Below the pieces are notes generated by a model. That model saw nothing but the letters and a program-made list of their open reading frames with translations, was not told the origin of the DNA and searched no databases. Shown here one piece after another: positions 17,462 to 54,128 of a DNA stretch of 58,956 nucleotides (within the stretch, counting starts at the first letter, position 1; each line of letters opens with the position of its first letter). The stretch comes from Candidatus Magasanikiibacteriota bacterium (lineage in GTDB: Bacteria > Patescibacteriota > Patescibacteriia > Magasanikbacterales > GWA2-37-8): the NCBI GenBank assembly GCA_963840935.1, contig CAWJAS010000001.1, positions 645,834-704,789 on the forward strand. Direction: 5' to 3'. A program made the translations under genes and the position numbers.

Positions 17462-17514
17462 TGATGATAGCCTGCCTCGGAGAAACCCGAGGCAGGTTGA
17501 TAGGAATGAACGAA

Positions 17515-20500: not shown

Positions 20501-23325
20501 CAGGTTCCCGCTCCGTCGCAGGTGTCGGCGCTGTCGCAGACATCGACGGTGGTATCACCGCAAGCGGTACCCGACGGCTCGAAGCCGTCGTCCGGGCAGT
20601 CAGCCGAGGAACCGGTGCAGAATTCGGCGACATCGCAGTCACCCACATCAGCACGGCACTCGGTGGTGTCCGGCAGGAACGAATCGTCCGGGCAGTCGCC
20701 CGCTCCGTCGCAGTACTCGTCCACGTCGCAAACGCCAGCCGAAGCATGGCAGATCACGGTGGTGGGCTCGTAGTTCGGGAGGCAGGTTCCCGCTCCGTCG
20801 CAGGTGTCGGCGCTGTCGCAGACATCGACGGTGGTATCACCGCAAGCGGTACCCGACGGCTCGAAGCCGTCGTCCGGGCAGTCAGCCGAGGAACCGGTGC
20901 AGAATTCGGCGACATCGCAGTCACCCACATCAGCACGGCACTCGGTGGTGTCCGGCAGGAACGAATCGTCCGGGCAGTCGCCCGCTCCGTCGCAGTACTC
21001 GTCCACGTCGCAAACGCCAGCCGAAGCATGGCAGATCACGGTGGTGGGCTCGTAGTTCGGGAGGCAGGTTCCCGCTCCGTCGCAGGTGTCGGCGCTGTCG
21101 CAGACATCGACGGTGGTATCACCGCAAGCGGTACCCGACGGCTCGAAGCCGTCGTCCGGGCAGTCAGCCGAGGAACCGGTGCAGAATTCGGCGACATCGC
21201 AGTCACCCACATCAGCACGGCACTCGGTGGTGTCCGGCAGGAACGAATCGTCCGGGCAGTCGCCCGCTCCGTCGCAGTACTCGTCCACGTCGCAAACGCC
21301 AGCCGAAGCATGGCAGATCACGGTGGTGGGCTCGTAGTTCGGGAGGCAGGTTCCCGCTCCGTCGCAGGTGTCGGCGCTGTCGCAGACATCGACGGTGGTA
21401 TCACCGCAAGCGGTACCCGACGGCTCGAAGCCGTCGTCCGGGCAGTCAGCCGAGGAACCGGTGCAGAATTCGGCGACATCGCAGTCACCCACATCAGCAC
21501 GGCACTCGGTGGTGTCCGGCAGGAACGAATCGTCCGGGCAGTCGCCCGCTCCGTCGCAGTACTCGTCCACGTCGCAAACGCCAGCCGAAGCATGGCAGAT
21601 CACGGTGGTGGGCTCGTAGTTCGGGAGGCAGGTTCCCGCTCCGTCGCAGGTGTCGGCGCTGTCGCAGACATCGACGGTCAGATCCCCGCAAGCGGTACCC
21701 GACGGCTCGAACAGTCCACCATCAGTGCAACATTCCGTTGCCGGGTCACACTGTGTGGCGCATTCTCCAACGCCTCCGGTTTCCACGCAACCGAACGCGC
21801 AATCGACGCAGGAAGCGTAGGTCGCGTTATCGGTCTCGCAGACCGAATCCATCGAGCAGGCGTCGATATCGGTCCAGCCGGAGCTGTTGATATCGCCGTC
21901 GCACGCATCGGAATCGCCGGCGCAGATCTGGAACAACACGTTCATTTGCGGAATTGCTCCGCACTCGGTACCGGTGCACTGGTACTCGGACCAGTTGTCG
22001 CAGACCGTACCGAAAGACAGGAACGTGCCGGTTGCGGTATCGCAACAGTCACCACTGGTGCACTGCGGATCCGTGTCCGTATCCGTGTCGGTGTCGGTAT
22101 CCGTATCGGTATCCGTATCGGTATCGGTGTCGGTATCGGTATCCGTATCGGTATCCGTATCGGTGTCGGTATCCGTGTCCGTATCCGTGTCGGTGTCGGT
22201 ATCCGTGTCCGTATCGGTATCCGTGTCCGTGTCGGCATCGCCACTTGACTGGCACTCGCCAACCAGACATCCGAACTCACAATCGTCGCACGTGGCGAAG
22301 GTTGAGATATCCGTTTCGCAAATGGCATCAACCGAGCAATCCTGAATGGTCACCCAGTCGCTCGAGAAGATCTCGCCATCGCAAAACTCGGAATCGCCGA
22401 CGCAGTACTGAACGTTGGCGCGCATCTGCGCGTCAGCTCCGCAATCACCTGACGAACACTGGAACTGAACCCAGCTATCGCAGGAATTCGAACTGTCCAT
22501 GAACGTTCCTGTTACGGTGTCGCAACAGTCGCCACTGGTACACTGCGGAGGGTCCGTATCCGTGTCGGTGTCCGTGTCGGTGTCCGTGTCGGTATCCGTA
22601 TCGGTGTCGGTATCCGTGTCGGTGTCGGTATCCGTGTCCGTATCGGTGTCCGTATCGGTGTCCGTGTCGGTGTCTGTATCGGTGTCCGTATCGGTGTCCG
22701 TGTCGGTGTCTGTATCGGTGTCCGTGTCGGTATCCGTGTCGGCATCACCGCCCACACAGAACGACTCGCTCAAGCAAGTCCCTCCTGTGGTGAACCCGTC
22801 CACGGCCGTACAGCACATGGCTATCGGGTAACGGATCGGGCAAGGGTCACCTGCCGGCTGGTAGGTCAGCAAGCACTCGGGCGTCGGGTCTGCGGTCGTC
22901 CAGATGTCTGGACTCCCGTACTCACACCCGTCGACAAAGACCTGTTCGCAAGAACCGCCGACAGTGAGCGAATCACCATCGTTGTCTTCGTCCCAGCAGA
23001 AGTTGGACTGGCCGGAGCCGGGCACGGGCATGTCGTAGCATGTGGTCGTGTCCACTCCGTAAACCTGTCCGTCGTCCGGACAGGCGACCGAAACGTCGTC
23101 GCAGATGAAATCGTACGGATCCGTGTCGGAATCCGTATCGGTGTCGGTATCGGTATCCGAATCGGTATCCGTGTCCGAATCCGCGTCGCTGTCGGAATCG
23201 GTATCCGAATCAGCGTCCACATCCGTTCCCTTGTACACCGACTGAGTGCTGTCGCCGGGATTCGGCGAAAGACACCCGGTCGCGCCCAAGAAAGCGCAAC
23301 AGACGAGCCAGAAAAACTTTCTCAT
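17515..23325 (-). CDS. Giant secreted lipoprotein with (Asp-Thr)n linkers and tandem disintegrin-like Cys-rich repeats
   Basis: 1936 aa. SD aaaggaggaaagaggaa precedes the ATG. Signal peptide plus lipobox MRKFFWLVCCAFLGATGC. Four D/T/S tracts, two CTSGDCCD domains, and 11 x 94-aa repeats containing CRADVGDCDVAEFCTGSSADCPDDGFEPSGTAC. GC3-rich codons on this strand. Confidence 0.9.
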   Translation of the reverse strand: MRKFFWLVCCAFLGATGCLSPNPGDSTQSVYKGTDVDADSDTDSDSDADSDTDTDSDTDTDTDTDSDTDPYDFICDDVSVACPDDGQVYGVDTTTCYDMPVPGSGQSNFCWDEDNDGDSLTVGGSCEQVFVDGCEYGSPDIWTTADPTPECLLTYQPAGDPCPIRYPIAMCCTAVDGFTTGGTCLSESFCVGGDADTDTDTDTDTDTDTDTDTDTDTDTDTDTDTDTDTDTDTDTDTDTDTDTDTDTDTDTDTDTDTDPPQCTSGDCCDTVTGTFMDSSNSCDSWVQFQCSSGDCGADAQMRANVQYCVGDSEFCDGEIFSSDWVTIQDCSVDAICETDISTFATCDDCEFGCLVGECQSSGDADTDTDTDTDTDTDTDTDTDTDTDTDTDTDTDTDTDTDTDTDTDTDTDTDTDTDTDPQCTSGDCCDTATGTFLSFGTVCDNWSEYQCTGTECGAIPQMNVLFQICAGDSDACDGDINSSGWTDIDACSMDSVCETDNATYASCVDCAFGCVETGGVGECATQCDPATECCTDGGLFEPSGTACGDLTVDVCDSADTCDGAGTCLPNYEPTTVICHASAGVCDVDEYCDGAGDCPDDSFLPDTTECRADVGDCDVAEFCTGSSADCPDDGFEPSGTACGDTTVDVCDSADTCDGAGTCLPNYEPTTVICHASAGVCDVDEYCDGAGDCPDDSFLPDTTECRADVGDCDVAEFCTGSSADCPDDGFEPSGTACGDTTVDVCDSADTCDGAGTCLPNYEPTTVICHASAGVCDVDEYCDGAGDCPDDSFLPDTTECRADVGDCDVAEFCTGSSADCPDDGFEPSGTACGDTTVDVCDSADTCDGAGTCLPNYEPTTVICHASAGVCDVDEYCDGAGDCPDDSFLPDTTECRADVGDCDVAEFCTGSSADCPDDGFEPSGTACGDTTVDVCDSADTCDGAGTCLPNYEPTTVICHASAGVCDVDEYCDGAGDCPDDSFLPDTTECRADVGDCDVAEFCTGSSADCPDDGFEPSGTACGDTTVDVCDSADTCDGAGTCLPNYEPTTVICHASAGVCDVDEYCDGAGDCPDDSFLPDTTECRADVGDCDVAEFCTGSSADCPDDGFEPSGTACGDTTVDVCDSADTCDGAGTCLPNYEPTTVICHASAGVCDVDEYCDGAGDCPDDSFLPDTTECRADVGDCDVAEFCTGSSADCPDDGFEPSGTACGDTTVDVCDSADTCDGAGTCLPNYEPTTVICHASAGVCDVDEYCDGAGDCPDDSFLPDTTECRADVGDCDVAEFCTGSSADCPDDGFEPSGTACGDTTVDVCDSADTCDGAGTCLPNYEPTTVICHASAGVCDVDEYCDGAGDCPDDSFLPDTTECRADVGDCDVAEFCTGSSADCPDDGFEPSGTACGDTTVDVCDSADTCDGAGTCLPNYEPTTVICHASAGVCDVDEYCDGAGDCPDDSFLPDTTECRADVGDCDVAEFCTGSSADCPDDGFEPSGTACGDTTVDVCDSADTCDGAGTCLPNYEPTTVICHASAGVCDVDEYCDGAGDCPDDSFLPDTTECRAAVGECDLTEYCTGVSASCPVDSLDSGSLCRPSEGDCDLDEYCDGSSPYCPADEFLDSSYECDSVVFDECTGVLCGADPIRFTFHRFCGGASPICNGAVTSESEFLDFCGANSICAMVSDDPVCVDCGYICENVSDFGTCVGELDEPCASPPVDPCDDGLYCDSESTCSETDGGVDGGADADTDADTDSDTDSDTDADTDADTDADTDSDTDSDTDSDTDTDSDTDPEECWIDDDCLGDLLCLDNVCVECIDATDCADGEVCGRDSRVCYPLPEPAIGEYLFCWDYDPDKDGSTDNTTCNNYDDGGCEYWSPAMWEYEDGVSMPLCGVWPDTCADEQPLPECCLTDQSDWASLPSYEECLSNPLCDETDPVNYRSCLSEGFLTEYTP
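18676..21711 (-). repeat. Perfect in-frame tandem repeat, 282-bp unit, about 10.8 copies
   Basis: The unit start agcacggcactcgg recurs at 18676 and 18958 (offset 282). The ORF track shows ten identical 91-aa and ten identical 83-aa shadow ORFs spaced exactly 282 nt. The last copy diverges after 21678. Confidence 0.95.
22067..22238 (-). repeat. (Asp-Thr)n coding tract (degenerate GAY-ACN hexamer repeat)
   Basis: Plus-strand gtccgt/atcggt/gtcggt iterations that translate as DTDTDT... on the minus strand. Approximate bounds. Confidence 0.85.
22550..22745 (-). repeat. (Asp-Thr)n coding tract, second long copy
   Basis: Same degenerate hexamer pattern, about 32 DT dipeptides. Approximate bounds. 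Confidence 0.85.
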
Positions 23326-23628
23326 TTCCTCTTTCCTCCTTTTGCATCATCACACTTGTTATAGGCAAACACGTATTTGCTCGCCTATTATTTCACTTCC
23401 TTCAATTTTCAAAGGACTTGTCATATTACTAAGCTCTATTCCGCTCGCGCAAAAAAAGCGCTACACGGCAGGGAGAGCAACCCTGTTTTCTTCCGGCAAA
23501 TTTTACCGAAAAAAAACAAAGCAAAAAACCAAAACATTTTTTGAGAGAGTTTTGGCTTATTTCTCGTAAATCAGCCGGCTCTCTCCCCTGCTAATTAATT
23601 GATTTTTACATCTTTATAATAACACTAA

Positions 23629-23657
23629 ATACTATCACTTTTACTCTAATTTGTCAA
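23629..23657 (-). promoter_or_regulatory. Sigma70-type promoter for the giant lipoprotein gene
   Basis: Minus strand: TTGACA (23657-23652), 17-nt spacer, TAGTAT (23634-23629). Confidence 0.55.
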
Positions 23658-23784
23658 TAGTTATAACGATTTTGTAATAAAATTATGACTTTGACGCGAA
23701 AACATAATGATTTAGCTTGTTTTAGCCAAAAAAATTCTACTTTAAGTAGAATTTTTTAGAACTTATTGATTATAATGACTCAAG

Positions 23785-24399
23785 TTAACTTTTTTTGTTC
23801 ATACCCGGCTTTTGTGAATTTATATTTCTCAAATTTCTGAAAGTTTCGTCATGACTTCCCTCTTCGATTTCCGTGCTGTTCAAATCATCGTCGAATTCAA
23901 TACCATCATAATCTAATGATTCGTTTTTAATTTTCTGTGATTTTGCCTGACTAATTACATCCCCCAACATATCCTTGTCATTCATAACAAGTGCCAATCC
24001 AATTTTATTGAATAATTCCGCGTGCAAATCGGGACGTATTTCTTCAAAAAAAGTTTGCGTGTGACCTTTAGCTTTTTTATACTTAAATATTCTTGCTAAA
24101 TTATTATATCTTTGAAATGTATCGGAAGATATATTGAAATTTTTTAATAATGTGTAAAATCCATTATCCATTGTAACCATCAATTTCTGTTCGGCAGTCA
24201 GTCCCCGCAAATATCTATCAGTAATTTTATTTTTTTGTTCTTGATAACGAGTGATTTCTTTTACAATCTCTAATTCACTAGAATTATCGCCCAATAATCG
24301 CATGCATCGAACTCCCGTCTCGGCCACATTATCGAGCATAACTTTATTATAAATTTTTATAGCTTCAATCAAATCGATAAACTTATAATTTTCCGGCAA
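23785..24399 (-). CDS. Hypothetical protein (AT-rich gene inside the island); frame is open upstream to the TAG of the preceding gene
   Basis: 204-aa ORF with a TTG start. The 28 codons upstream (DFSNYESDEEINFLSVTEEEGPAPRKIE) are in frame and stop-free back to the TAG at 24484-24486. Confidence 0.5.
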   Translation of the reverse strand: MPENYKFIDLIEAIKIYNKVMLDNVAETGVRCMRLLGDNSSELEIVKEITRYQEQKNKITDRYLRGLTAEQKLMVTMDNGFYTLLKNFNISSDTFQRYNNLARIFKYKKAKGHTQTFFEEIRPDLHAELFNKIGLALVMNDKDMLGDVISQAKSQKIKNESLDYDGIEFDDDLNSTEIEEGSHDETFRNLRNINSQKPGMNKKS

Positions 24400-24483
24400 T
24401 TCAATTTTTCTTGGCGCCGGACCCTCTTCTTCAGTAACCGACAGAAAATTAATTTCTTCGTCTGATTCGTAATTTGAAAAATC

Positions 24484-25203
24484 CTAAATCATTTTCTGAA
24501 ATAAATTATTGTAAATTGAATAAATAGTTCTAGCATCTCTTCTTGAATAGGCAGTTGACAAATCGTCAATGATATTTTTTATCTCTTCCGTTTCCAAAGC
24601 TTGGGTTCCCAAATTATCAATAATAATTTTTCTTGCCATCTCATTTGCTTTGTCATATAAAGCACCTTGGTCCATATCTTCCATGGTTTCTTGTTTTTTT
24701 ATAACATCAACCGCTAAAGGGTTTTCTTCCAGATAATCTTTATAATCTGATGGTAATGGATTAAAAGCATTCCCGGTTGCCGGAATCCTTTTTTTATATT
24801 TCGGTTCCTTAATTAATTCACGCAAAAGACCGGCTGACATTTTTAATAATACCAAATCATGTGTCGCCAATTTTTCTTTGGCTTCACGAACAATACGCTC
24901 AACATAATCGTCCATTTGCTCGGTCTCGTCTTTTTCTTGATGATCTGAATTAAGACCGGTTGCGCCTGCTTCCAATGAAACGGCGTTTAAACTAGAAGCC
25001 AACAAAACACCGGCAATCCAAGCTTTCCATTTTGTACCAATCTCTGGCAAAAATTCTTTTTTATTATTATCGCCTGATGCTCGACTGACTAAATCAAGGG
25101 TTTCATTTCTTGAAACTTCAAAAGTTGTATCTACAATTTGCCTCCCAACACTTTTTTTGGTTGCAAATATTTCAGCGTTATTTATGCTTTTTCCTTCCCG
25201 CAT
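24484..25203 (-). CDS. Hypothetical single-pass membrane protein (AT-rich gene inside the island)
   Basis: 239 aa with one hydrophobic segment, WKAWIAGVLLASSLNAVSL. No SD. Confidence 0.5.
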   Translation of the reverse strand: MREGKSINNAEIFATKKSVGRQIVDTTFEVSRNETLDLVSRASGDNNKKEFLPEIGTKWKAWIAGVLLASSLNAVSLEAGATGLNSDHQEKDETEQMDDYVERIVREAKEKLATHDLVLLKMSAGLLRELIKEPKYKKRIPATGNAFNPLPSDYKDYLEENPLAVDVIKKQETMEDMDQGALYDKANEMARKIIIDNLGTQALETEEIKNIIDDLSTAYSRRDARTIYSIYNNLFQKMI

Positions 25204-25270
25204 ATTTATAGAATATTATAATTATTCATTATTATTTTATAATATCTTTTTTATTGTTATTTTGCAAACA

Positions 25271-25296
25271 AAAAATCCCGGCACAAGGCCTGGATT
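25271..25296 (-). terminator. Hairpin terminator after the 509-aa lipoprotein gene
   Basis: aatcc-cggc-acaag-gcc-tggatt, an imperfect stem. The A-run at 25270-25275 is a T-run on the minus strand. Confidence 0.45.
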
Positions 25297-25307
25297 CTTT
25301 GATTCAT

Positions 25308-25337
25308 CTGAGATTGTCTGAGAGATAGACCATCTCA
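25308..25337 (-). repeat. Conserved 3'-UTR hairpin motif, copy 2
   Basis: ctgagattgtctgagagatagaccatctca, compare 17427-17461. Confidence 0.5.
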
Positions 25338-25409
25338 AGTGGATTGGCAGTTTGATGGTACTGCCGGACCGAAATGAGCGATAGGATAGAACAAGGAAGG
25401 GTGGAACCG

Positions 25410-26939
25410 CTACGGCTCCACGAAGGACTTCGCCCAGATGAGCGAGCTACCGACGTACTGGCCGGCGCACTCACGGTCGAAGGTGAAAGAGCCAGCGTGG
25501 GCGGGCACGCACCGTTCCACGATGGGGACGGCGTGCCCGTTCTGGCACTGGAAAGAGGCAGGAATCGAGGTAGACTCGATCACGGCCGGGCTGTACCCGT
25601 ACCCGTGATATTCACACGTCCCCCCGCCGGTATCGATGCGATAACCGCGGTCCCAGGTACCCAAGTTTCCACTCGGGCGGGACCCGCAGATACCGTCGAA
25701 CTTCCACCGGTAAGTGATACCTCCGATGGATTCGAACCGGGTCGAGATGATCCAGCACACCGAACTGCCGGAGCAGTTGGTGGACTGGGAGCAATCGGCG
25801 GGGATACAATTCCCTTCGATTGTGCAGGCATACCCGGGCGGGCACTGGTGATCCGGGTCGCCCCAGATGCACTCGCCTTCGTCCGCCACACACTCGCCAC
25901 CCACGCAGGTCTCGCCCGCGGGGCACGAGTAGTCGTTCCACTCCCCGCACTCGGAATCGTCGCAATAGGCGGTCGAGGTGGTGACGACGCAGTGCTCGGT
26001 CGAGGTGCACGTGTCGAGGGTCGTCCAGAATCCGCCGACACAGGCCTGTGCCTGGTCGCCCAGGCACCGGTAGGTGCCGGAGGTGCACTCGGAACTGGTC
26101 TGGCAGTGGCCGGCCACGCAGGTCTGCCCCGAAGGGCAGTCGGCGAGGTCGTACCAAGACCCAGCGACGCACAGCTCGACGGTGTTGCCGTCGCACTGTC
26201 GCGAGCCATCCGTGCAACCGAGTGCTTCACAGAAACCGTCCTCACAGAACTCTCCCGAAGGGCAGTCGGCGAGAACCTCCCAATGGCCGGCGACGCACAC
26301 CTCGACGGTGTTCACGTCGGCGCAACGGCGGTCGCCGTTGTCGCACTCGGAGCCGGCGACGCAAAATCCGTCGTCGCACACCTGCCCCGAAGGGCAGTCG
26401 TACGCGGTGGACCAGTCGCCATCGACGCAAATGACGAACGAATCCGAGTCGGTGCACTCGCGCGCATCGTCCTCACACTCGCTGTCGTCCACGCACTCGC
26501 CGTCCTCGCACGACTCCTCGCACTCGTACAGGTCGTACCAAGACCCGTCGAAGCAAATCTGGACGACCAGCTCGTCGCACTGCGTGTCCCCGTCCTCACA
26601 GGCCGGGGCGACGCAGGCGCCGTCGTCGCAGACATACCCCGAGGGGCAGTCGATCGGAATCGACCACTCACCGCCGGCGCAGACGACGAACGAATCCTCG
26701 TCGACGCACTCGCGCGCGTCGTTCTCGCACTCGTCCGTGTCACTGTCGCTGTCGGTGTCCGTGTCCGCGTCGGAGTCGGCATCGCTGTCGGCGTCCGAAT
26801 CGGCGTCGGTGTCCGCGTCACTGTCAGCGTCGGCGTCGGTGGCGCCCATGTAGGGACCGAGCCCATCGGGCTCCACACCACAGGCCGAAACCAGGACCAG
26901 AATCATCGAAGCGAAGATGACGTTCATGACGTTCTTCAT
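25410..26939 (-). CDS. Acidic Cys-rich repeat lipoprotein (module 1, gene 2)
   Basis: 509 aa. Signal peptide plus lipobox MILVLVSAC. A D/A/S/T tract. Six to seven ~42-aa repeats of the form C-x5-C-x7-9-C-x3-W-x5-CPSGxxC-x4-C. SD gaaagagg. Confidence 0.85.
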   Translation of the reverse strand: MKNVMNVIFASMILVLVSACGVEPDGLGPYMGATDADADSDADTDADSDADSDADSDADTDTDSDSDTDECENDARECVDEDSFVVCAGGEWSIPIDCPSGYVCDDGACVAPACEDGDTQCDELVVQICFDGSWYDLYECEESCEDGECVDDSECEDDARECTDSDSFVICVDGDWSTAYDCPSGQVCDDGFCVAGSECDNGDRRCADVNTVEVCVAGHWEVLADCPSGEFCEDGFCEALGCTDGSRQCDGNTVELCVAGSWYDLADCPSGQTCVAGHCQTSSECTSGTYRCLGDQAQACVGGFWTTLDTCTSTEHCVVTTSTAYCDDSECGEWNDYSCPAGETCVGGECVADEGECIWGDPDHQCPPGYACTIEGNCIPADCSQSTNCSGSSVCWIISTRFESIGGITYRWKFDGICGSRPSGNLGTWDRGYRIDTGGGTCEYHGYGYSPAVIESTSIPASFQCQNGHAVPIVERCVPAHAGSFTFDRECAGQYVGSSLIWAKSFVEP

Positions 26940-27137
26940 TTTGTTGCCTCTTTCTTTTTTTTCTAACCGTCCACATATAAATGAGACGGTATCGTTTAGA
27001 AACTTCTTACTTCTTGTTCTATTTTCAAAGAGCTTTTGGGGGCTCTTGTTTTCCCCTTTTTGGCCACGACTTAATCATGGCCACAATAAGGGAGGCCGAT
27101 TGCGGTTAAGCAACCGGCCAAAAAGGTAGGGGCGGCT

Positions 27138-28169
27138 CTAGAACGTGCCGCCAATGGTGACGAGTACGGACCAGCCGAGGTCCCAGCTCCGCTCGGTGCG
27201 GAATGGGTAACCCGGAATGGGGGCATCCTCGATGTGGGTCGAGGTCCCGATTCCGGCGAGAACGGACAGGAAGCCATGCTCGGTGAAGTAGAAGCTGAAC
27301 TCGGGTCCGCCTCCGATGAAGGAGCTACCCTTGTCGTTCATCTCCTCCTTCAAGTAGAGCGCGGTCACCCCGACGGCGAGGTTCTTCTTCTCGCCGAAAA
27401 CGAACTCGGGACCAGCCTGGCCAACGAGCATCGCTTCCCCGTCGAACGTGACGCCGATGCCGGCATGGATCTTCGCCCGGACGATATTTGTGTCCGTAAT
27501 GGCGAAATTCAGACCGAGGACACCCGCCACGCCGTAAATGTCCGAAGACAACACGAGGGTGGCGCCGACGTCGAACCGGACCTTCTGGCCCATCTTGATG
27601 ATGAGCGCGTCGTGCTCGTCCACCCGGCGCTCCAGAATGGTGATCCGCTCGTCGTGCTCGTTCAACCGTGCGTCGTGCACGGCATCCTTACGCTCACCGA
27701 CATCCGCCCTGTCCTTGAGGGTGGCGATGTCCGCCTCAGCGGCGTCCATGCGCCCCTCCAGGTCGGCGATCCTCTTCTCGAGCTCCCCGAGCTTCAAGAA
27801 AATCTCGTCCCTGAGCGCCTCCAGGTCGTCCTTGCTCGCCAGGTTCTTGAGCGCCAGAGCGATCTGGCGCTTCACCCAGCCAGCTCCGACGCCGGGACGG
27901 GCCTTGGCCTTCTCGTACGTGTCGCCACAGGGCCCGTAGGCCTTGCGACACCTGTCCGAGGGACCGTTCCCACAGTTGACGATGAGCTGCCCGATGCAGG
28001 CGTTCGCCTCGCGGAGCAGGACTTTGTCGGCCTGTGCCTCGTGCTTGGTGGCCAGCGAGGAGGGCGTGTAGTACGACCCATCCTCGACCACGGTCGCCCA
28101 CTGGGCCGAAGCCGAGTTGACGAAAACGAGGGTAGCGACGATCACGATGGAAACGATGAACTTCTTCAT
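27138..28169 (-). CDS. Secreted coiled-coil protein with C-terminal 8-strand beta-barrel-like domain ending in Phe (module 1, gene 1)
   Basis: 343 aa. Signal peptide ...VFVNSASA/QW. Heptad-rich region LEALRDEIFLKLGELEKRIADLEGRMDAAEADIATLKD. Eight alternating hydrophobic strands ending in LVTIGGTF. SD ggagg. Confidence 0.8.
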   Translation of the reverse strand: MKKFIVSIVIVATLVFVNSASAQWATVVEDGSYYTPSSLATKHEAQADKVLLREANACIGQLIVNCGNGPSDRCRKAYGPCGDTYEKAKARPGVGAGWVKRQIALALKNLASKDDLEALRDEIFLKLGELEKRIADLEGRMDAAEADIATLKDRADVGERKDAVHDARLNEHDERITILERRVDEHDALIIKMGQKVRFDVGATLVLSSDIYGVAGVLGLNFAITDTNIVRAKIHAGIGVTFDGEAMLVGQAGPEFVFGEKKNLAVGVTALYLKEEMNDKGSSFIGGGPEFSFYFTEHGFLSVLAGIGTSTHIEDAPIPGYPFRTERSWDLGWSVLVTIGGTF

Positions 28170-28350
28170 TTTGTCCTCCGTTCTCGCGCATCGCGCGAGC
28201 GCGAATTGCGAGCCGTTGGTTTCTTCATTTTTTACCTACCTTTTATATTTTAAAGAGCGATTTCAGAGTTTTTTGCTCTGTTTGCGCCCGCTCTTGATTT
28301 GAGGCACAAAGTAAAGCAAATTACTACAAGCTTATTTAATTTAACAGATT

Positions 28351-28379
28351 AGTATATCATATTTTAGCACTTTTGTCAA
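28351..28379 (-). promoter_or_regulatory. Sigma70-type promoter (proximal) for module 1
   Basis: Minus strand: TTGACA (28379-28374), 17-nt spacer, TATACT (28356-28351). Confidence 0.55.
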
Positions 28380-28537
28380 TAGCCCGCTAAAACATTATTT
28401 TTTTGCTATAAAAAGCAAAAATCTCTCCTTTTGAGAGAGTTTTCGCCAATAAACACGGTAAAATGCCTTGTTTATTGGTTTTGGCTACGCCTCTCTCAAA
28501 CGTTGGCCAATTTATTGAGTTTTCAATTACGAGAAAT

Positions 28538-28566
28538 ATTATACCACATTGGTATGATTTTGTCAA
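28538..28566 (-). promoter_or_regulatory. Sigma70-type promoter (distal, inside left arm of the inverted repeat)
   Basis: Minus strand: GGGGGG-TTGACA (28566-28561), 17-nt spacer, TATAAT (28543-28538). Confidence 0.55.
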
Positions 28567-28678
28567 CCCCCCACCACTTTTGACCGAATATCAATAAAAT
28601 TAAATTAAACATTATTGCAATTAATAATTTAGTAATAATTAAGGATTCTTTACTAAAAGTGGTGGGGGGTTGACAAAA
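28558..28678. repeat. Perfect 24-nt inverted repeat carrying two divergent -35 boxes
   Basis: TTTTGTCAACCCCCCACCACTTTT (28558-28581) is the exact reverse complement of AAAAGTGGTGGGGGGTTGACAAAA (28655-28678). The 73-nt spacer is AT-rich. Confidence 0.9.
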
Positions 28679-28698
28679 GTGAAAAAAAGTGATATAGT
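28670..28698 (+). promoter_or_regulatory. Sigma70-type promoter for the plus-strand gene at 28817
   Basis: TTGACA (28670-28675), 17-nt spacer, TATAGT (28693-28698). Confidence 0.55.
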
Positions 28699-28816
28699 AA
28701 TATGTTAAAAAAATGATGATATAGATATTGTTTTTTGACCTAAAATCGTCAATTGTGGCGATTTTAAAAAGAAAATAAATAGAGCAAAGAAAGCTCTTTG
28801 AAAAGAGGAGGAGAAG

Positions 28817-29456
28817 ATGGCCGTAGCAAGAAGGAACCCTCGTCGTGGTAACCAGAACCAGCAACAGGCACCCGCCCCGGCTCCGGCTCCGCCGGCTCCC
28901 CCTCAGCCTCAACCGGCTCCGGTGGCTCCGGTTCAGCCCCCCGCCCCCGTGGCACCGCCCCCGGCTCCTCCGCCGGCTCCCAGGCCGGCAACGCCCAGGA
29001 CCGCGGTCGAGTTGGCCGCCATGCGTTTGATTGGGCGTGGCGAGGAGATGCTCGAGGAGGCGGAACGGCGCGACAACGCGCGCCGGATCGAGCTGGAAGA
29101 AGCCGAGCGTCGGCGTCAGGCTTTCTGGCGCACCGTACGGATGGTGGTCGGAAATCTTGATTCTCATCGGAATCGCCGTCATGGTGACCATGTTCATCAT
29201 GGCGACCCCGACGCCCCCGGCTTCCCCACCCCCGTCGCCCGTGGTCATCACGACCACCCAGCCCACCCCCACGAACATCAACATCATCTGCGGATGTGAT
29301 GATGACGAGCTCTGCATCCCCTGTACCACGGAGGAATGCCTCCAAGGAAACAGGGTCATGACCGTGAGCTCGGCCGAGGCATGTTGCCGGGCGATTCCGG
29401 ATGAGAAAGAAAAGCAGCGCTGTCTCAACATGATCAAAGTTCTCAAACGGCGCTAG
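28817..29456 (+). pseudogene. Pro-rich / coiled-coil / single-TM / Cys-rich C-terminal domain protein, needs a +1 shift near 29130-29140
   Basis: SD gaggaggag precedes the ATG at 28817, which starts the frame MAVARRNPRRGNQ...(AP-rich)...EEAERRRQAFWRTV. Downstream, the GC3-rich frame is that of ORF 29031..29456 (GWWSEILILIGIAVMVTMFIMATPTPP...CGCDDDELCIPCTTEECL...). The His-rich tail of the first frame has T-rich third positions. Confidence 0.6.
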
Positions 29457-29488
29457 TCCAACTCATCACTCCTTTCGTTCTTTCCTCG

Positions 29489-29519
29489 ACCCGTCAGTGT
29501 CCAACTGACGGGTTTTTTT
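29489..29519 (+). terminator. Rho-independent terminator
   Basis: acccgtcag-tgtccaa-ctgacgggt followed by ttttttt. Confidence 0.7.
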
Positions 29520-29674
29520 ATTCCGTCGCATATTAATTTTTTAAATTATTGTTATAAGCAACGTCGCGGAGCCGTTCATGAACGACGGGATAAATAAAAC
29601 CCGTCAGTCGCGACTGACGGGTTAAAAAGGGGCAACCGCAATGGTTGCCCCTCGTAAGTTAACAAAAAAGAAAA

Positions 29675-31063
29675 TTACTCTTCCAAATCCACCAAATAGG
29701 TGTAAAAGCTCTCGCCGACGCAGGGCCGTTCATCCCAAGAATACTCCGCGAAATCGGAGTCCTCGGTGACACAGCACTCGGGCTCGGGTTCGATCTCTCC
29801 ACCACAATCGATGGGATAGGACTCGCAGAGCGGGGTTGCGGTTTCGGGATCGTATTCCCAAATGGCCGGCGACCACATGTCACACTCGTCGAACGACTCC
29901 ATGTCGCAGGTGCCGCCCTCGGTCGTGTCGTCTCCGTCGCCGTCCTTGTCCCAGCACATCATGTACTCTCCCTCTTCCAGGGTCGGAAGCGGATAGCACT
30001 CGTGGCTGATCTTCCCGCAAACGTATCCGTCCGGGCAATCCTCGGCCGATTCGCACTCGGCTCCGGCATCACCGTCTCCGGCATCCGGACCGGCGTCGTC
30101 GTCGAGACCACCGTCCATTTCCGACTCGGTATCGGTTTCCGTGTCCGTATCCGTGTCGGAATCCGAATCTGTGTCAGCATCGCTGTCCGCGTCACCACCG
30201 TCGGCTCCGCCGTCAATATCCGACTCGGTGTCGGTATCGCTATCAGAGTCCGTGTCGGCGTCGGTGTCCGTGTCGGCGTCGGTGTCCGTGTCGGCGTCCG
30301 TGTCCGTATCCGAATCGGTGTCGGTATCGGAGTCGGAGTCGCTGTCGCTATCGGAGTCCGTGTCGGTATCCGTGTCCGTGTCCGAATCGGTGTCAGTATC
30401 GGAGTCGGTGTCCGTGTCGATGTCCGTGTCCGTATCCGTGTCGGTATCGGCGTCGGTGTCCGTGTCGGTGTCCGTGTCCGTATCCGTGTCGGTATCGGCG
30501 TCCGCTGAAGCGCAGTATCCGGTCCCGTCGCTGTGGAACAGACATCCGAATTCGCAATGAACGCAAGTGTTACTTGCGTAATCGCAAATATCGTCCGGAC
30601 CACAGGATTCCCATTCGACCAGAGGAATTTCCACCAGATCACCACCTACGCACGAGGCGCTATCACCCGTACAGTACTCTTCCACCAAATAGAGGTACTT
30701 GCCACCACCACATGACGGTTCTACACCGCAGTGAATGGTATAACTCTCACCGCATACTTCGGTCGGCATTTTGAAGTGACCGAAAGCATCACAGCAAGGA
30801 CCGCTGGAACAATCGGTATCCGTATCCGTGTCCGAATCGGTGTCGGTGTCGGTGTCCGTGTCGGTATCCGTATCCGTGTCCGAATCGGTGTCGGTGTCGG
30901 TGTCCGTGTCGGTATCCGTGTCCGTGTCCGAATCGGTGTCGGTGTCGGCATCGCCGTCGGGAATTCCGAAAACGGACTGGTTGGGGTCGCCCAGGTTGGG
31001 CGACAGACATCCGGCGATGAAGGCGACGAAAACGAAAACCACGAAAACGAAGTTCTTCGTCAT
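29675..31063 (-). CDS. Acidic (Asp-Thr)n Cys-rich lipoprotein, paralogue of the giant lipoprotein (module 2, gene 2)
   Basis: The ATG at 31063 has SD gaggagagag. MTKNFVFVVFVFVAFIAGCLSPNLGDPNQSV matches the giant protein N-terminus GCLSPNPGDSTQSV. It has one CSSGPCCD domain, long DT tracts, and a C-terminal CWDKDGDGDD...MWSPAIWEY...ECC domain shared with 17515..23325. Confidence 0.85.
   Translation of the reverse strand: MTKNFVFVVFVFVAFIAGCLSPNLGDPNQSVFGIPDGDADTDTDSDTDTDTDTDTDTDTDSDTDTDTDTDTDTDTDSDTDTDTDCSSGPCCDAFGHFKMPTEVCGESYTIHCGVEPSCGGGKYLYLVEEYCTGDSASCVGGDLVEIPLVEWESCGPDDICDYASNTCVHCEFGCLFHSDGTGYCASADADTDTDTDTDTDTDTDADTDTDTDTDIDTDTDSDTDTDSDTDTDTDTDSDSDSDSDSDTDTDSDTDTDADTDTDADTDTDADTDSDSDTDTESDIDGGADGGDADSDADTDSDSDTDTDTETDTESEMDGGLDDDAGPDAGDGDAGAECESAEDCPDGYVCGKISHECYPLPTLEEGEYMMCWDKDGDGDDTTEGGTCDMESFDECDMWSPAIWEYDPETATPLCESYPIDCGGEIEPEPECCVTEDSDFAEYSWDERPCVGESFYTYLVDLEE
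30120..30505 (-). repeat. (Asp-Thr/Ser/Ala)n coding tract
   Basis: Degenerate gtc-ngt / atc-ngt hexamers on the plus strand. Approximate bounds. A second tract lies at about 30813-30957. Confidence 0.8.
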
Positions 31064-31246
31064 TTTTCTCTCTCCTCGTTGTTGTCGGCAAAACGTCAAT
31101 GCGCCTGACCGTTGCATTTTTTCTTTTTTGTTGTAAAGAACATATTTCAAAACCATTTTTTTCGGTCGAACATATTTGTTCAAATCGAAACGGGTGGTTG
31201 ATTATCCCTTCCTATATATACGAACTGTTCATATATAAAGGAAAGT

Positions 31247-31277
31247 GGGTGATGAACACAGGAAGTGTTCATCACCC
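31247..31277 (-). terminator. 13-bp perfect hairpin between module 2 genes (terminator or attenuator-like)
   Basis: gggtgatgaacac-aggaa-gtgttcatcaccc. There is no clear U-tract on the minus strand. Confidence 0.4.
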
Positions 31278-31325
31278 TAAAAGAACGGGCCTAAACGCGG
31301 TTAAACGTTCAGGTTATCAAATCAA

Positions 31326-32747
31326 TCAGAAAAAGAGAGAGACGGACACACCGCCCATGGGAACGAACTCCCCGGACAGCCGTTGGTTGTCGTAGGTGGC
31401 ACCGGGAATGAGTCCTTCGGGCGGGTCGGCCGTGACCCAAGCGTACTCGTACGCCGGACCGATGAAACCCTCGATGCCGAGGTTCAATTCCTTGGTCAGA
31501 GGAATGACACCTCGGATGAAAGCTCCACCGCCATATCCTAATTCGTCGTTGAACGGCATGTTCGCGCCGTAGGTGGCCAAGTAAAGCCCTCCCCAGATGT
31601 AGCGATGGAACTCGTACCCGAACTTGATTCGGGTGTCGAACATAAATTCCACCGGACTGTCGTCGAGAGCGAGCCCAATCGCGCCGGACAAACCGACACG
31701 AACCTTGGCCTTCCTGATCCAGTAGGTCCCCTCGAGCATCATGCCCATGATAGCCGGGCTGAACTGCCCGACCAGGCCGACTTCGAGGAGACCCAAATCC
31801 TGCTTCTGCGAAGCGAGCGCATAGGCGGACTCGGCCACCTTCTTGGCACCCTTGGCCTCGGCTTCGGCTTCGTTTACCGCTTCCTCAGCGGCATCCACCT
31901 TGGCGCGAAGCTCGGCGAGCTCCGTGGGGTCGATGGGTTCTCCGGCCTCTGCCTTGGCTTCGGCCTTGGCCAGAGCTTCCTCGGCGATTGCCTTGGCTTC
32001 ATCGGCCTTCCGGCCCGCCACATCGGCACGGCCCTGGGCATCGCCCGCGGCTTCCGCCACCTTCACCAAATCGCTCTGACTCGCACCGCCTCCGCCGTTC
32101 GCCTTGGCTTCCTCTGCCGTGGCCTTGGCTTCTTCGGCCAGTGCCTTGGCTTCGTTCGCCGTGGCCTGAGCTACCGTCGCTCGGCGGGAAATGGAAATCG
32201 CATCGTCCACGGATACCTCACCACCGTCTCCGCTTCCGGTGACGACTGATTCGAGTATCACAATTCGGCCTTCGTGGTCCTGGTGCCCGGCTTCGAGCTT
32301 GTCCACTCTTCCTTCGATGGACGAAACGCGATCCGCGAGGGCGTTGAGCCCCTCGACTTGGCCTGCTGCCGCCATCGGAATCGCCTTGTTGATCATCCGG
32401 CTCACCTGAGCCCGCTGGGCCGGAGTGAGTTTCGCCGCTTTCGGGTTCTCCGCGGGCTTGTCCAGCTTGTCGGCATCGACCACCGCCCGACCACAGTCGG
32501 GAGAATCGGGGTTCTTGCACTCCTCGGCCAAGGCTCTGACGGCCTGGGTGAGACCGACGACGCTGTAGGCGAGCATCATGTCTCTCAACTGACCGGCCTC
32601 TTCGACATCGTCGCTCGCCTTCTGCGAAACGACGGTCTGCGGAGTGGAAACAGCGCCCGGAGTGTAGTACTCCTCGGCCATCACGGAACCGGAAAATGCG
32701 AACACGAACAACGCGAAAGCGCAAATCGTAACGACGAAATTCTTCAT
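31326..32747 (-). CDS. Secreted coiled-coil protein with C-terminal 8-strand beta-barrel-like domain ending in Phe-Phe (module 2, gene 1)
   Basis: 473 aa. Signal peptide ...FSGSVMA/EE. YYTP motif shared with 27138..28169. Long A/E/K coiled coil. Alternating strands ending in GGVSVSLFF. SD gaggac. Confidence 0.8.
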   Translation of the reverse strand: MKNFVVTICAFALFVFAFSGSVMAEEYYTPGAVSTPQTVVSQKASDDVEEAGQLRDMMLAYSVVGLTQAVRALAEECKNPDSPDCGRAVVDADKLDKPAENPKAAKLTPAQRAQVSRMINKAIPMAAAGQVEGLNALADRVSSIEGRVDKLEAGHQDHEGRIVILESVVTGSGDGGEVSVDDAISISRRATVAQATANEAKALAEEAKATAEEAKANGGGGASQSDLVKVAEAAGDAQGRADVAGRKADEAKAIAEEALAKAEAKAEAGEPIDPTELAELRAKVDAAEEAVNEAEAEAKGAKKVAESAYALASQKQDLGLLEVGLVGQFSPAIMGMMLEGTYWIRKAKVRVGLSGAIGLALDDSPVEFMFDTRIKFGYEFHRYIWGGLYLATYGANMPFNDELGYGGGAFIRGVIPLTKELNLGIEGFIGPAYEYAWVTADPPEGLIPGATYDNQRLSGEFVPMGGVSVSLFF

Positions 32748-32968
32748 CTTTGTCCTCTTCTTTCTTTTTCTCGCGCTTATCTCAAACGCGTTTTTTTATC
32801 AAAGAACTTTTTTGCTTGCGTTCTATTTAAACACCCGAATTAGATCGGATGATTGTTTTAGAACGCAATATATACTTCCTCACGATTCCCGAAAAATCAG
32901 GAATCAAGTTGGAAGGGAAACGGCCGGAATTGACCGTTTCCCGAATAGGTAGGTAAAAACTACTGTGA

Positions 32969-33766
32969 CTACTGTGGAAGATTGCCGTGCAACCGCAACT
33001 GGGTGACCGTACTCATGCCGACGCACTTGGCGATTTCTTCCACATCGCCGGCGTTGCCGAGCACGAGACAGCAGTGAAGCGCGTCGAGTTCCGGCGGAGC
33101 CGGACTGATTTCGGGGAAGCAATCCCCGGACGACCTGGGCACACGCTTGCCCATGACGATATCGGCCAAGGGCCCATTCGGGTCCTCGGGCGTCCAGCCG
33201 AGCGGTCCATCGACCAGCGGTTCCATCCTGGTAAGGACGTCTACCGCGGTGAACTGAACCGTTCCGGCTTCCTTCGCCGGCATCGGCTTGCCGTCGACGG
33301 GAGCCTTCTCGATGTCGGTCACCATCGTCGTCGACTCGGCCGGGACATTGCCCGCGGGATTCTTTATGATGAGCATGAAGCCGATGATGAAGAAGAAAAG
33401 AAGGGCGAAAACAGCGACCACCTTGACCGCGAGCGATGTTTTGCGTTCTTCCTGTTTCTTCTCCTCCTTCGGCAGGGGCGGGGGCGTCGGCGGAGCCGTG
33501 TTGTCAGGCACGGTCTCGGGCTTCACCTCGGGCAGATCCACCTCGAGGGGAACGGTCTGCGCCACGTGGCGCGAAGCCTTGTCGTCGTCGGCCACGACCG
33601 CCTTCTCGGCGTTGGGGTCAACGGACGCTTCGTCGCCGGGGGCAACCGGCTCTTCGGACACGACTTCCGGCGAGGTGTTCACCTCACCGCCGTCCGTATC
33701 CGCGCCCGTGTCACCTTGCGAAACCGGCAGTTCCACTGTCGGCGCTTTCATATCGTTCTCGGTCAT
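32969..33766 (-). CDS. Single-pass membrane protein with acidic/Pro-rich N-terminal region
   Basis: The ATG at 33766 is preceded by aaaggaggcaag. TM segment VKVVAVFALLFFFIIGFMLII. The track start at 33904 overlaps the FHA gene and lacks an RBS. Confidence 0.65.
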   Translation of the reverse strand: MTENDMKAPTVELPVSQGDTGADTDGGEVNTSPEVVSEEPVAPGDEASVDPNAEKAVVADDDKASRHVAQTVPLEVDLPEVKPETVPDNTAPPTPPPLPKEEKKQEERKTSLAVKVVAVFALLFFFIIGFMLIIKNPAGNVPAESTTMVTDIEKAPVDGKPMPAKEAGTVQFTAVDVLTRMEPLVDGPLGWTPEDPNGPLADIVMGKRVPRSSGDCFPEISPAPPELDALHCCLVLGNAGDVEEIAKCVGMSTVTQLRLHGNLPQ

Positions 33767-33896
33767 CTTGCCTCCTTTTCGGGGCGACGCACCGGGCGCC
33801 GGCGCGCGTTTGGGTTTCTTGGAATCACTGAAAAAAATCGAAATCTTGTCATTGCCCAAAAAGAGTTTGTCCGCATGGAGCAGTTCGTACCATGCG

Positions 33897-34979
33897 TCAC
33901 TCAAGACTTCTCACTCCATTGACGTAAGTTCCATTCAACGACTCACAGTCGCAAATGAAACAGTCATCGCCGTCTCGCTTGATCATGGCGTGCCGAGCCG
34001 AAACTGACTCCTCGGACTTATCAACCACCACATCGCACATGGGCGATCTGCCGATAACGATGGTGTCGCCATCCGCAAGCGGACAACGAACCATTCCGTA
34101 GTTGTCGAGCTGAATCAAGAAAGGAGCCCCGTCCTCGGCCTGGGAATTCGGGAACCGTTCCCAAATCCTGGCCGCTCTCTGAACGGAAATCCTCATCTTC
34201 ATAGTCGGCATTTCATCAGAAGCGAGCGGTGAAGGAGGAGGAGACAAGGTCGGAATGTCATCCGGGGAAGGAGAACCTTTCTCATCCATTCCCCAACTGT
34301 CTTCCACTTTTGCCTCCGGCTCCACTGGTTTCGGCAGATCCACCTCGTCTTTCGCCTGTTTGATGACTTCTTCGGTGGTCAGAGCGCGGTCTTCCTCGCC
34401 ATCGGCGTCACCGCCGTTGTCAGAATCCGCATCATCGCCGACTGTCGCCGTCGCCGTGGCAACCTCGGTTTCACCCGTCTCAACAACTTGAGTGGGCTCA
34501 TCCTCGGAATCTTCCGAGTCGTGGCTTGATTCCACGACAATGGGGTCGCCTTCCGCTGGCTGGGTGGTTTCTTCACCCGAATCCGGACCCTCGAAAGTGT
34601 TCTCAAGAGAAGAACCGTCATCTTCCATGCGAAGGATGTAACCGCTCAAACGAGCGGCTTCTTCCTTTTCTTCATCGGAAAGAGGCGGAGGCGCGACACT
34701 GGTTCGCACCGCTTCCGCCATCTGCGGATCACCCTCTTCTTCGAGGGTCTGCGCCACTCTCTCGGCCATGGCCATTCGCGACGCGCGAGGCGTCGTCTCC
34801 GGCCTTCTCGGCATGATCGGCGCCGAGAGAGTCGTCGGTGGCGCAGGCGGTGGAAGAGTTCCTCCCCTTACCGTCGAATAGTCTTCACTATCTTCGGCAG
34901 AGGGATTATCCCCTGCACCAAACACCGGAGTACTGCCGTACATTTTGGTCGGCAGTTTCTCTCTTGGTTTATCGCCCAT
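33897..34979 (-). CDS. FHA-domain protein with long disordered acidic N-terminal region
   Basis: C-terminal VIGRSPMCDVVVDKSEESVSARHAMIKRDGDDCFICDCESLNGTYVNG fits the FHA signature (GR...S..H...D..S.NGT.vNG). SD aggag. Confidence 0.75.
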   Translation of the reverse strand: MGDKPREKLPTKMYGSTPVFGAGDNPSAEDSEDYSTVRGGTLPPPAPPTTLSAPIMPRRPETTPRASRMAMAERVAQTLEEEGDPQMAEAVRTSVAPPPLSDEEKEEAARLSGYILRMEDDGSSLENTFEGPDSGEETTQPAEGDPIVVESSHDSEDSEDEPTQVVETGETEVATATATVGDDADSDNGGDADGEEDRALTTEEVIKQAKDEVDLPKPVEPEAKVEDSWGMDEKGSPSPDDIPTLSPPPSPLASDEMPTMKMRISVQRAARIWERFPNSQAEDGAPFLIQLDNYGMVRCPLADGDTIVIGRSPMCDVVVDKSEESVSARHAMIKRDGDDCFICDCESLNGTYVNGVRSLE

Positions 34980-35070
34980 TATTTTCTCCTGTTTCTACTC
35001 CTTCCTTGGGAGTTTTTTGTGTTTTTACCTAAGTTTTAAAGAACTTATGCTTTAATAAGCATAACAGAGA

Positions 35071-35099
35071 AATATAGCATAAATCTTCATTTTTGTCAA
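35071..35099 (-). promoter_or_regulatory. Sigma70-type promoter for the FHA operon
   Basis: Minus strand: TTGACA (35099-35094), 17-nt spacer, TATATT (35076-35071). Confidence 0.55.
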
Positions 35100-54126: not shown

Positions 54127-54128
54127 AT

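Follow-up and report, generated by a model that had tools for sequence, protein, structure and literature searches.

The window analysed here is a 58,956-nucleotide stretch of the 770,905-bp contig CAWJAS010000001.1 from a Candidatus Magasanikiibacteriota bacterium. Its subject in this report is a pair of genes that occurs twice on the minus strand: a gene for a coiled-coil protein with a C-terminal strand domain (A1 and A2), followed by a gene for an acidic, Cys-rich lipoprotein (B1 and B2). The initial annotation, made from the sequence alone, had proposed two such like-ordered pairs, and all four open reading frames (ORFs) were recovered in that arrangement (A1-B1 and A2-B2, Table 1). The window is a segment of a bacterial chromosome with a GC content of about 40% and carries housekeeping genes (MurB, Mur ligase, IF3, BipA, LigA, CysS, PilM, PilD and tmRNA). 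Within it, the pairs sit inside a conserved island of cell-envelope (surface) genes, arranged in the order Lys/Glu-rich giant gene, FHA gene, A2, B2, membrane protein, A1, B1, further lipoproteins and Wzy.

Table 1. Features of the two A-B pairs and of neighbouring island genes; positions are those of the window.
Feature	Position	Strand	Description
A1	27138-28169	-	343 aa; ORF and translation
A1 signal peptide	28104-28169	-	reads ...NSASA, cleavage before QW
A1 head	27885-28103	-	Cys-clamped, helical, with YYTP
A1 coiled coil	27582-27884	-	
A1 beta domain	27141-27581	-	eight amphipathic strands, C-terminus GGTF
A1-B1 spacer	26940-27137	-	198 nt, GC 0.43, four hairpins; fold z = -7.0 versus shuffles
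B1 lipoprotein	25410-26939	-	509 aa; lipobox VSAC, Cys20, next residue G
B1 Asp-rich linker	26730-26837	-	Asp tract, residues 35-70
B1 six-Cys repeats	25806-26729	-	about 44 aa each
B1 C-terminal domain	25413-25805	-	conserved, Cys-containing
A2	31326-32747	-	473 aa; ORF and translation
A2 signal peptide	32676-32747	-	reads ...GSVMA, cleavage before EE
A2 head	32364-32675	-	YYTP and one Cys pair
A2 coiled coil	31794-32363	-	long, interrupted, Ala/Glu/Lys-rich
A2 beta domain	31329-31793	-	C-terminus SLFF
A2-B2 spacer	31064-31325	-	262 nt, GC 0.38; fold z = -7.3 versus shuffles
Hairpin at start of A2-B2 spacer	31277->31247	-	terminator-like, 13 pairs
B2 lipoprotein	29675-31063	-	462 aa; lipobox IAGC, Cys19, mature start C-LSPN
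Hairpin after B2	29598-29623	-	terminator-like
Promoter-like site upstream of A1	28566->28538	-	sigma-70-like, 12/12, extended TG; consensus match only
Promoter-like site upstream of A1	28379->28351	-	sigma-70-like, 11/12; consensus match only
Promoter-like site upstream of FHA gene	35071-35099	-	11/12
1936-aa lipoprotein	17515-23325	-	B2-class N-terminus C-LSPNPGD, lipobox ATGC, Asp-Thr tracts, 215 Cys
Divergent gene between the pairs	28817-29456	+	Pro-rich N-terminus, one transmembrane helix, extracytoplasmic tail with CC-x11-C
FHA-domain membrane protein upstream of A2	32969-34979	-	Pfam FHA, E = 5e-14

The layout that had been described for the first gene of each pair (a Sec signal peptide, a YYTP motif, a coiled coil and about 150 aa of eight strands) was confirmed on the translations and on the secondary structure of AlphaFold models, in which helices extend to residue 196 of A1 and 318 of A2 and then give way to strands, of which A1 has eight and A2 eight to nine. 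The YYTP motif occupies residues 33–36 of A1 and 27–30 of A2. Paired Cys residues had been reported for both proteins. This is true of mature A1, with four Cys (58, 66, 74 and 81), but mature A2 has a single pair (77 and 85) and not two. Hydrophobic residues recur at a regular spacing of 3–4 over residues 116–151 of A1 and 134–169 of A2. In A2 this heptad stretch is followed by an Ala/Glu/Lys-rich zipper, which gives a borderline match to Pfam Alanine_zipper (24.6 bits versus a cut-off of 23.1 bits, E = 3e-5); the match lies in a low-complexity Ala/Glu/Lys stretch, and single stretches each score below the cut-off. A1, B1 and A2 are under purifying selection, with dN/dS values of 0.18–0.24 for A1, 0.16–0.20 for B1, and 0.14–0.25 overall for the three genes.

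Comparison of the two A proteins indicates that they are paralogues over at least the N-terminal half. By BLASTP, the N-terminal part alone aligns (E = 1e-5), and alignment of the small A1 and A2 families with hhalign gave a probability of 97.8% (E = 8e-13) over approximately the first 160 residues. The two first-gene proteins are thus not unrelated, a possibility that the initial annotation had raised against the idea of a repeated module. The C-terminal domains remained unaligned with shallow, single-lineage profiles. With broader profiles (11 diverse A1-type versus A2-type domains, including the distant one from contig L135), they aligned co-linearly over 135 columns, with E = 2.3e-4 and a probability of 45%. 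Paralogy plausibly extends over the whole length of the proteins.

The features attributed to the second genes (a lipobox, an Asp-rich tract and Cys richness) are present in both B1 and B2. A lipobox test with the pattern [LVI][ASTVI][GAS]C was positive for B1, B2, the 1936-aa lipoprotein encoded in the same island and all homologues examined, so that lipidation is predicted for all of them. B1 contains 53 Cys, is 67–86% identical in its relatives, and had no family match in Pfam and NCBIfam scans. For B2, the start codon is the ATG at 31063, which follows a GGAGAG ribosome-binding site and yields an N-terminal signal peptide; the mechanically called ORF starts at TTG 31183. The protein is 25% Asp, with three Asp-Thr/Ser tracts totalling 170 aa, 27 Cys and two Cys-rich domains. 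Apart from the lipobox, the Asp-Thr/Ser linker and the Cys richness, B1 and B2 have little in common: the best BLASTP value between them is E = 0.36, and their globular parts are not detectably homologous. The "duplicated module" of the initial annotation is therefore an accurate term where gene 1 is concerned, and for gene 2 it describes the design but not the ectodomains.

The C-terminal domain of B2 is instead paralogous to that of the 1936-aa lipoprotein (BLASTP E = 8e-26, 42% identity). In the gene for the latter, a 282-bp repeat occurs 10.9 times at 99% identity (18637–21711), and the protein matches Pfam Disintegrin (PF00200) with E = 4e-78 (258.6 bits versus a cut-off of 35.1 bits) in 12 stretches, the best of which spans only the C-terminal part of the profile. 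The copy number of this repeat varies greatly among relatives, the homologue in L009 being 783 aa long.

The A family is a lineage-specific invention with a very narrow distribution. Neither A protein matched above noise in Pfam and NCBIfam scans, so that within these two collections the earlier statement that the pairing is not a described system stands, neither A family fitting a curated model. An exhaustive profile search of 1.84 billion representative proteins returned 31 matches at E <= 0.001, of which about 10 are true relatives (221–372 aa, two of them fragments). The full-length ones have the same architecture, and the remainder of the matches are coiled-coil noise. Word-indexed protein searches gave five matches each for A1 and A2, at 64–100% identity, one of them being the A2 of the window itself; with a 12-member family alignment as query, only P0033 was gained, coiled-coil words having probably crowded the list of candidates. 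A loose DNA pattern for the KEGFxDxGD loop of the strand domain, run on genome contigs, produced at least 120 matches, mostly chance matches in GC-rich DNA, and among the matches listed there was one true locus, L076. A search of PHROGs gave only weak coiled-coil matches. A metagenome scan with a low-complexity Asp pattern derived from the B1 alignment brought up, among the matches listed, the actinobacterial contig L134, which was discarded as spurious.

Inspection of the DNA downstream of these relatives revealed that the order of the pair is kept. Close relatives of A, 76–89% identical to A1, were found in L001–L008, whose downstream DNA was read; JGI samples 3300005077 and 3300037048 also contain close relatives. 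More distant ones are P0011 in L009 (about 40% identity to A1), P0014 in L076 (27%), P0041 in L135 (in the same 90% cluster as P0012, which is 29% identical to A1), P0013 in L136 and P0016 in L137 (26% each), and P0033 in L133 (23%), whereas P0026 in L139 is a marginal member of the family. In all readable contexts, the next gene on the same strand, 45–300 nt downstream of A, starts with a lipobox and an acidic repeat linker. This order was seen in the window (twice), L009 (twice), L135 (twice), L076, L136, L137 and L133; in L139, the marginal member is likewise followed by such a gene. The gene-neighbourhood check suggested earlier thus shows A genomically linked to an acidic-linker lipoprotein in every relative with readable downstream DNA. 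Both pairs are present in L009 and in L135, and the duplication therefore predates the split of these lineages.

The lipoproteins themselves are more variable than their position. Those of L136 and L137 bear other Cys-rich repeats (CxNPPNDVCSGDDL...), with the adjacency kept. Lipoproteins next to all A1-type genes, including those with swapped ectodomains, carry C-G-[VLIM]-[EQS] after the lipobox, and the B2-class and stand-alone lipoproteins begin with C-L-S-P-[NG]. The lengths of the two partners also go together: in the window, L009 and L135, A proteins of 331–345 aa lie beside an acidic linker of 28–50 aa, and A proteins of 462–473 aa beside one of 160–252 aa. This length match suggests that the pair sets and spans a single envelope distance.

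The two genes of each pair are separated by AT-rich spacers (Table 1), in line with the hairpin-containing spacers of 200–260 nt described initially; both fold far more stably than shuffled sequences, and their low GC content stands against 0.58–0.65 for the genes of the pairs. The structure of the A1-B1 spacer is kept in six relatives, with nine base pairs changed on both sides, and the hairpins of the A2-B2 spacer are kept with compensatory changes in L009 and L012. Spacers and leaders matched no Rfam family. A promoter scan found nothing promoter-like in either A-B spacer, nor between the FHA gene, A2 and B2. FHA, A2 and B2 may all be expressed from the promoter-like site that precedes the FHA gene. 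The arrangement fits co-transcription of A and B with attenuation between them, as we infer from the spacers and the positions of the promoter-like sites. Upstream of A1, the segment 28350–28700 is a dense promoter region, in which two sites face A1 and one (11/12) faces the opposite gene, all with an extended TG; the A1 leader after these sites would be 170–370 nt long.

Every strand of the C-terminal domain is two-faced, with one side hydrophobic and the other made of Gly, Ser, Thr and charged residues: the mean Kyte-Doolittle values are +2.4 (A1) and +2.1 (A2) for the hydrophobic face, versus -0.4 and -0.6 for the polar/small face. The two-residue periodicity of hydrophobicity exceeds that of shuffled sequences (z = 2.4 for A1 and 3.4 for A2). 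The domain contains 15% Gly, and its longest hydrophobic run is at most 8 residues. A C-terminal Phe is found in 7 of 11 family members, two of which end in the classic ...GYRF. Pfam OMP_b-brl (PF13505) matches two of 11 isolated C-terminal domains, with a best E of 1.4e-4, below the curated threshold. The strand positions in the A1 model would give short inward turns and two longer outward loops, one of which holds the conserved KEGFxDxGD motif. Amphipathic strands, Gly content and terminal Phe are, as sequence features, hallmarks of a lipid-embedded barrel rather than of a soluble sandwich, and a membrane barrel is the most likely reading of the modelled strand domain.

Several observations weigh against this reading. 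The AlphaFold models are of low confidence, with a mean pLDDT of 47.7 for A1 and 51.1 for A2 and values of 30–50 in the strand regions, although their secondary structure is clear, and the underlying alignments are shallow; because pLDDT is low in both models, the closed barrel is a putative one. A Foldseek search of the A models against the PDB gave no match at E <= 0.001, and the top match for A1, OmpW, had E = 1.4e-3 with TM-scores of only 0.13–0.22. Pfam barrel families matched neither the full-length A proteins nor the C-terminal domains of A1 and A2. The 59-kb window holds neither barrel-assembly nor lipopolysaccharide genes. A profile of the C-terminal domain compared with solved structures matched designed repeat proteins alone, which was taken as spurious.

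The host lineage, that of a bacterium with a small genome and probably akin to Candidatus Magasanikbacteria, adds to the difficulty. Patescibacteria have been proposed to lack an outer membrane (PMC12102498), and OmpM-type tethers are considered markers of two-membrane Terrabacteria (10.1101/2021.05.31.446380, also the source of the OmpM definition used here). An outer-membrane-type barrel carried on a rod is therefore unexpected in the genome of a presumed single-membrane lineage.

Among known systems, the closest design to A is that of OmpM/Slp (SlpA; Negativicutes, Deinococcus-Thermus and Cyanobacteria) and of Omp-alpha of Thermotoga. The predicted order of parts is the same (signal peptide, inward N-terminal domain, stalk, C-terminal barrel), as is the predicted task, a rigid link from an outer lipid layer to the inner layers of the envelope. 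Unlike OmpM, A has a Cys-clamped YYTP helical head in place of the SLH domain (Pfam gave no SLH match for A1 and A2 at E <= 0.1, nor for P0016, P0017, P0018 and P0026 at E <= 1), its putative barrel of about 150 aa and about eight strands is not porin-sized, no sequence similarity was detected, and its lineage is not expected to have an outer membrane. With Braun's lipoprotein (Lpp) and OprI, A shares a coiled-coil rod of defined length, A2 reaching the borderline Alanine_zipper match; it differs from them in having cleavage sites of the signal-peptidase-I type without a lipobox Cys, a predicted barrel as anchor, and a length 6–8 times greater. The strand domain resembles OMP_b-brl, the N-terminal domain of OmpA, OmpX and OmpW (about 150 aa, about eight amphipathic strands, Gly-rich, C-terminal Phe). 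In contrast to OmpA, the barrel would be fused to a long N-terminal coiled coil, which is the reverse domain order, and the PF13505 matches are below threshold. Finally, a head, a coiled-coil stalk and a C-terminal beta anchor with an aromatic end recall trimeric autotransporters of the YadA type, but about eight strands are predicted per chain versus four, and Pfam YadA_anchor was not matched. Export of the head through a barrel is disfavoured because the head disulfides of A are conserved. By these comparisons, A is not OmpM, a trimeric autotransporter, Lpp or a curated member of OMP_b-brl; judged by its anatomy, it would work like OmpM.

For B, the nearest likeness is to the MSCRAMM proteins Sdr and Clf, the Asp-x dipeptide repeats matching their Ser-Asp repeat region with E = 1e-26 to 1e-29. 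The scores are about 100 bits against model cut-offs of 999–2500, the repeat region alone being matched. In the staphylococcal Sdr/Clf proteins, the Ser-Asp region is a wall-spanning stalk for a binding head. B differs by its N-terminal lipid anchor in place of a C-terminal LPXTG motif (not seen in the B sequences), by repeats that are mostly Asp-Thr, and by disulfide-rich heads unrelated to the ligand-binding domains of Sdr/Clf. The A-B pairs are, in sum, a very narrowly distributed variant of a known design.

The explanation towards which we lean, tentatively and as one that may well prove wrong, is that A is an OmpM-like or Lpp-like strut whose barrel sits in an outer lipid layer, and that B, a tethered, adhesin-like lipoprotein matched to A in length, is translated from the A transcript. 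By signal-peptide sequence rules, A would be exported by Sec and its signal peptide cleaved. It would then form a parallel coiled-coil rod, which is some 100 residues long in A1 and, though interrupted, some 190 long in A2. At one end the rod would bear a small helical head, fastened by one or two disulfides, and at the other an eight-stranded amphipathic beta-barrel ending in Phe, serving as an anchor in the lipid outer layer. An even number of strands would put both ends of the barrel on the same side, and the rod would therefore hang inward from its anchor, like the SLH-plus-barrel tether OmpM or, in function, Braun's lipoprotein. B would be anchored to lipid via its N-terminal Cys, its Asp-Thr/Ser tract would form a polyanionic, extended stalk similar to the Ser-Asp repeats of Sdr/Clf, and the disulfide-rich modules would be displayed on this stalk as outward-facing binding heads. 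Read-through is probably attenuated by the structured spacer that follows each A gene, which would yield more A than B. Barrel closure, membrane insertion, oligomeric state, topology and contact between A and B are what we infer in this scheme.

Three other explanations were weighed against it. The initial annotation had argued for a functional pair rather than chance adjacency, and A and B might yet be independent surface proteins, adjacent through vertical inheritance of the island and without specific pairing, which we consider somewhat unlikely. Every context found is a version of one vertically inherited island, whose entire order, beyond the pairs, is shared with L009, L076 and L135; because of this common inheritance, the conserved order counts for less than co-occurrence that had arisen independently, and may be plain synteny. 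Moreover, B1 and B2 are unrelated outside the linker, and B-type lipoproteins also occur without a preceding A gene (17515–23325 in the window, others in L001, L135 and L136), which tells against a strict one-to-one pair. On the other side, the adjacency outlasts divergence of A down to 23–29% identity as well as replacement of the B ectodomain. The same short motif follows the lipobox after every A1-type gene, linker length tracks rod length, and the A-B spacers combine a conserved RNA structure with the absence of any promoter-like site. The earlier interpretation is supported in part: the paralogy of the A proteins makes the repetition more than chance, and the order recurs in the relatives.

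The two remaining alternatives concern the barrel. That A is a secreted fibrous protein of a single-membrane cell, with a soluble or oligomerising strand domain, is quite unlikely. In such a cell the strand domain could be part of a surface layer, or a wall- or B-binding domain, and the rod could belong to an outer layer made of protein, with the B lipoproteins protruding through it. The proposal that Patescibacteria have no outer membrane agrees with it, as do the LtaS-like enzyme encoded in the window and the type IV pilus cluster with no secretin nearby; AlphaFold gives no confident barrel, and fold searches no significant barrel match. It is harder to reconcile with strands that have distinct hydrophobic and polar faces, with the Gly content and terminal Phe (including ...GYRF in two members), and with the OMP_b-brl match, weak as this is. 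If the bacterium lives attached to another cell, a secreted A could also be directed at this host: its small barrel would insert into the outer membrane of the host cell, and the rod, along with the Cys-rich lipoproteins, would keep both cells joined. This would reconcile an outer-membrane-type barrel with a producer expected to have no outer membrane, and the island is rich in adhesin-like proteins. Small eight-stranded barrels such as OmpA and OmpX fold into lipid bilayers unaided, which also counts in its favour. Against it, evidence on lifestyle or host is absent for this genome, a cleaved A without an obvious anchor in the producer could not bridge two cells alone, and searches of Pfam, NCBIfam and PHROGs matched no related toxin or pore-former family. 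We regard this last explanation as very improbable.

The weight of the strut reading turns chiefly on two points: the reality of the barrel, and whether the bacterium itself lacks or unexpectedly possesses an outer membrane. It is unlikely, on our assessment, that a sub-lineage of the candidate phyla radiation encodes genuine eight-stranded outer-membrane-type barrels that are fused to rods spanning the envelope and each have a lipoprotein partner of matching length. If it does, the cells would possess an outer lipid layer and a distinct kind of tether for it, that is, a retained or reinvented two-membrane envelope; alternatively, they would plant barrels in the outer membrane of a host in order to dock. 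A conserved rod-plus-barrel protein offers a concrete, testable handle on whether candidate-phyla-radiation bacteria ever possess a second lipid layer and on their attachment to hosts. The matched pairs (short with short, long with long) could act as molecular rulers of the envelope; from the rods, an outer layer would be predicted at about 15 nm and 25–28 nm from the membrane. With about 10 relatives among 1.84 billion proteins and no curated model, the A family is worth a structural look.

The island differs from its surroundings in composition. At 17.5–35 kb lies a block of GC-rich genes (GC 0.57–0.68) with AT-rich spacers between them, and GC at third codon positions (GC3) is 0.58–0.86 in the block versus 0.33–0.45 in neighbouring genes. 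Over 17500–35050 this GC mosaic is stable gene by gene, with one AT-rich gene inside the island, and the same mosaic is kept in L009, L076, L135, L136 and L137 although dS between relatives is 0.5–1.0. Recent transfer from a GC-rich donor was rejected: the searches brought up neither homologues outside the island lineage nor a donor lineage, the mosaic is conserved gene-wise, and GC3 is still high at a dS of 0.5–1.0. A phage or mobile origin was rejected as well, phage genes and phage matches both being absent; no relatives of A1 or A2 were found in the viral contigs searched. The persistence of GC-rich island genes in an AT-rich genome despite heavy synonymous turnover is a separate puzzle. 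L139 (JGI Ga0480578_0009280) is GC-rich throughout, with GC3 of 0.70–0.85 that includes SmpB and a P-type ATPase, and nonetheless keeps the order SmpB/IF3 ... A-like gene followed by a lipoprotein gene. The contig may come from a relative that is GC-rich across its whole genome and not in the island alone.

In the contexts read, the island is flanked by the Lys/Glu-rich giant gene or SmpB/IF3 on one side and by Wzy on the other. L135 (GCA_026396515.1; JAPLWQ010000005.1), the contig of the NCBI protein MCX6782363.1 (a cluster mate of P0012), carries the whole island in the same order, and its genome is labelled Candidatus Magasanikbacteria. L076 (CAYOXC010000001.1), a sister genome, is labelled Gammaproteobacteria, yet the island and close A1- and B1-type proteins are common to L076 and L135. 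One of the two conflicting labels, or one genome bin, is likely wrong. The Gammaproteobacteria label of L076 is the one in doubt, because L076 has the island of the window together with the flanking Wzy and GT4 genes.

Several neighbouring genes appear interrupted in the assembly. The divergent gene between the pairs is frameshifted, with the junction near 29150–29236, and has intact homologues of 211–271 aa at the same position in L002, L009, L136 and L137. In the FHA protein, a single transmembrane helix joins the cytoplasmic FHA domain to an extracytoplasmic tail that bears CC-x14-C. Its gene is split by a frameshift near 33900–33915, which could be an assembly indel or a genuine frameshift; it is a single ORF of 578–655 aa in L009, L012 and L135. 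The tails of the FHA protein (32969–33100) and of the small membrane protein (29300–29456) share a Cys motif, also in L009, L136 and L137, in the form CC-x11-C-[LV], or CC-x14-C in the FHA protein of the window. The shared motif hints that these two proteins and the A and B proteins are parts of one surface system. Further downstream on the minus strand, at 23941–25164, two AT-rich ORFs of 239 and 204 aa together match one 685-aa AT-rich gene at the same island position in L135; the tblastn alignment is an unbroken segment that crosses from the first ORF to the second without a change of frame, suggesting that the assembly interrupts what is one gene.

Elsewhere in the window, a type IV pilus cluster lies on the minus strand at 52332–55286, in the order PilM, receiver-domain protein, pilin and PilD peptidase; PilN/O/P/Q are not adjacent to it. 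On the plus strand, at 43085–43480, a tmRNA gene adjoins SmpB (42622–43071) and IF3, and encodes an unusually long tag of 26 residues, ANLFNKVKASVARAFSPAMSFAPVAA.

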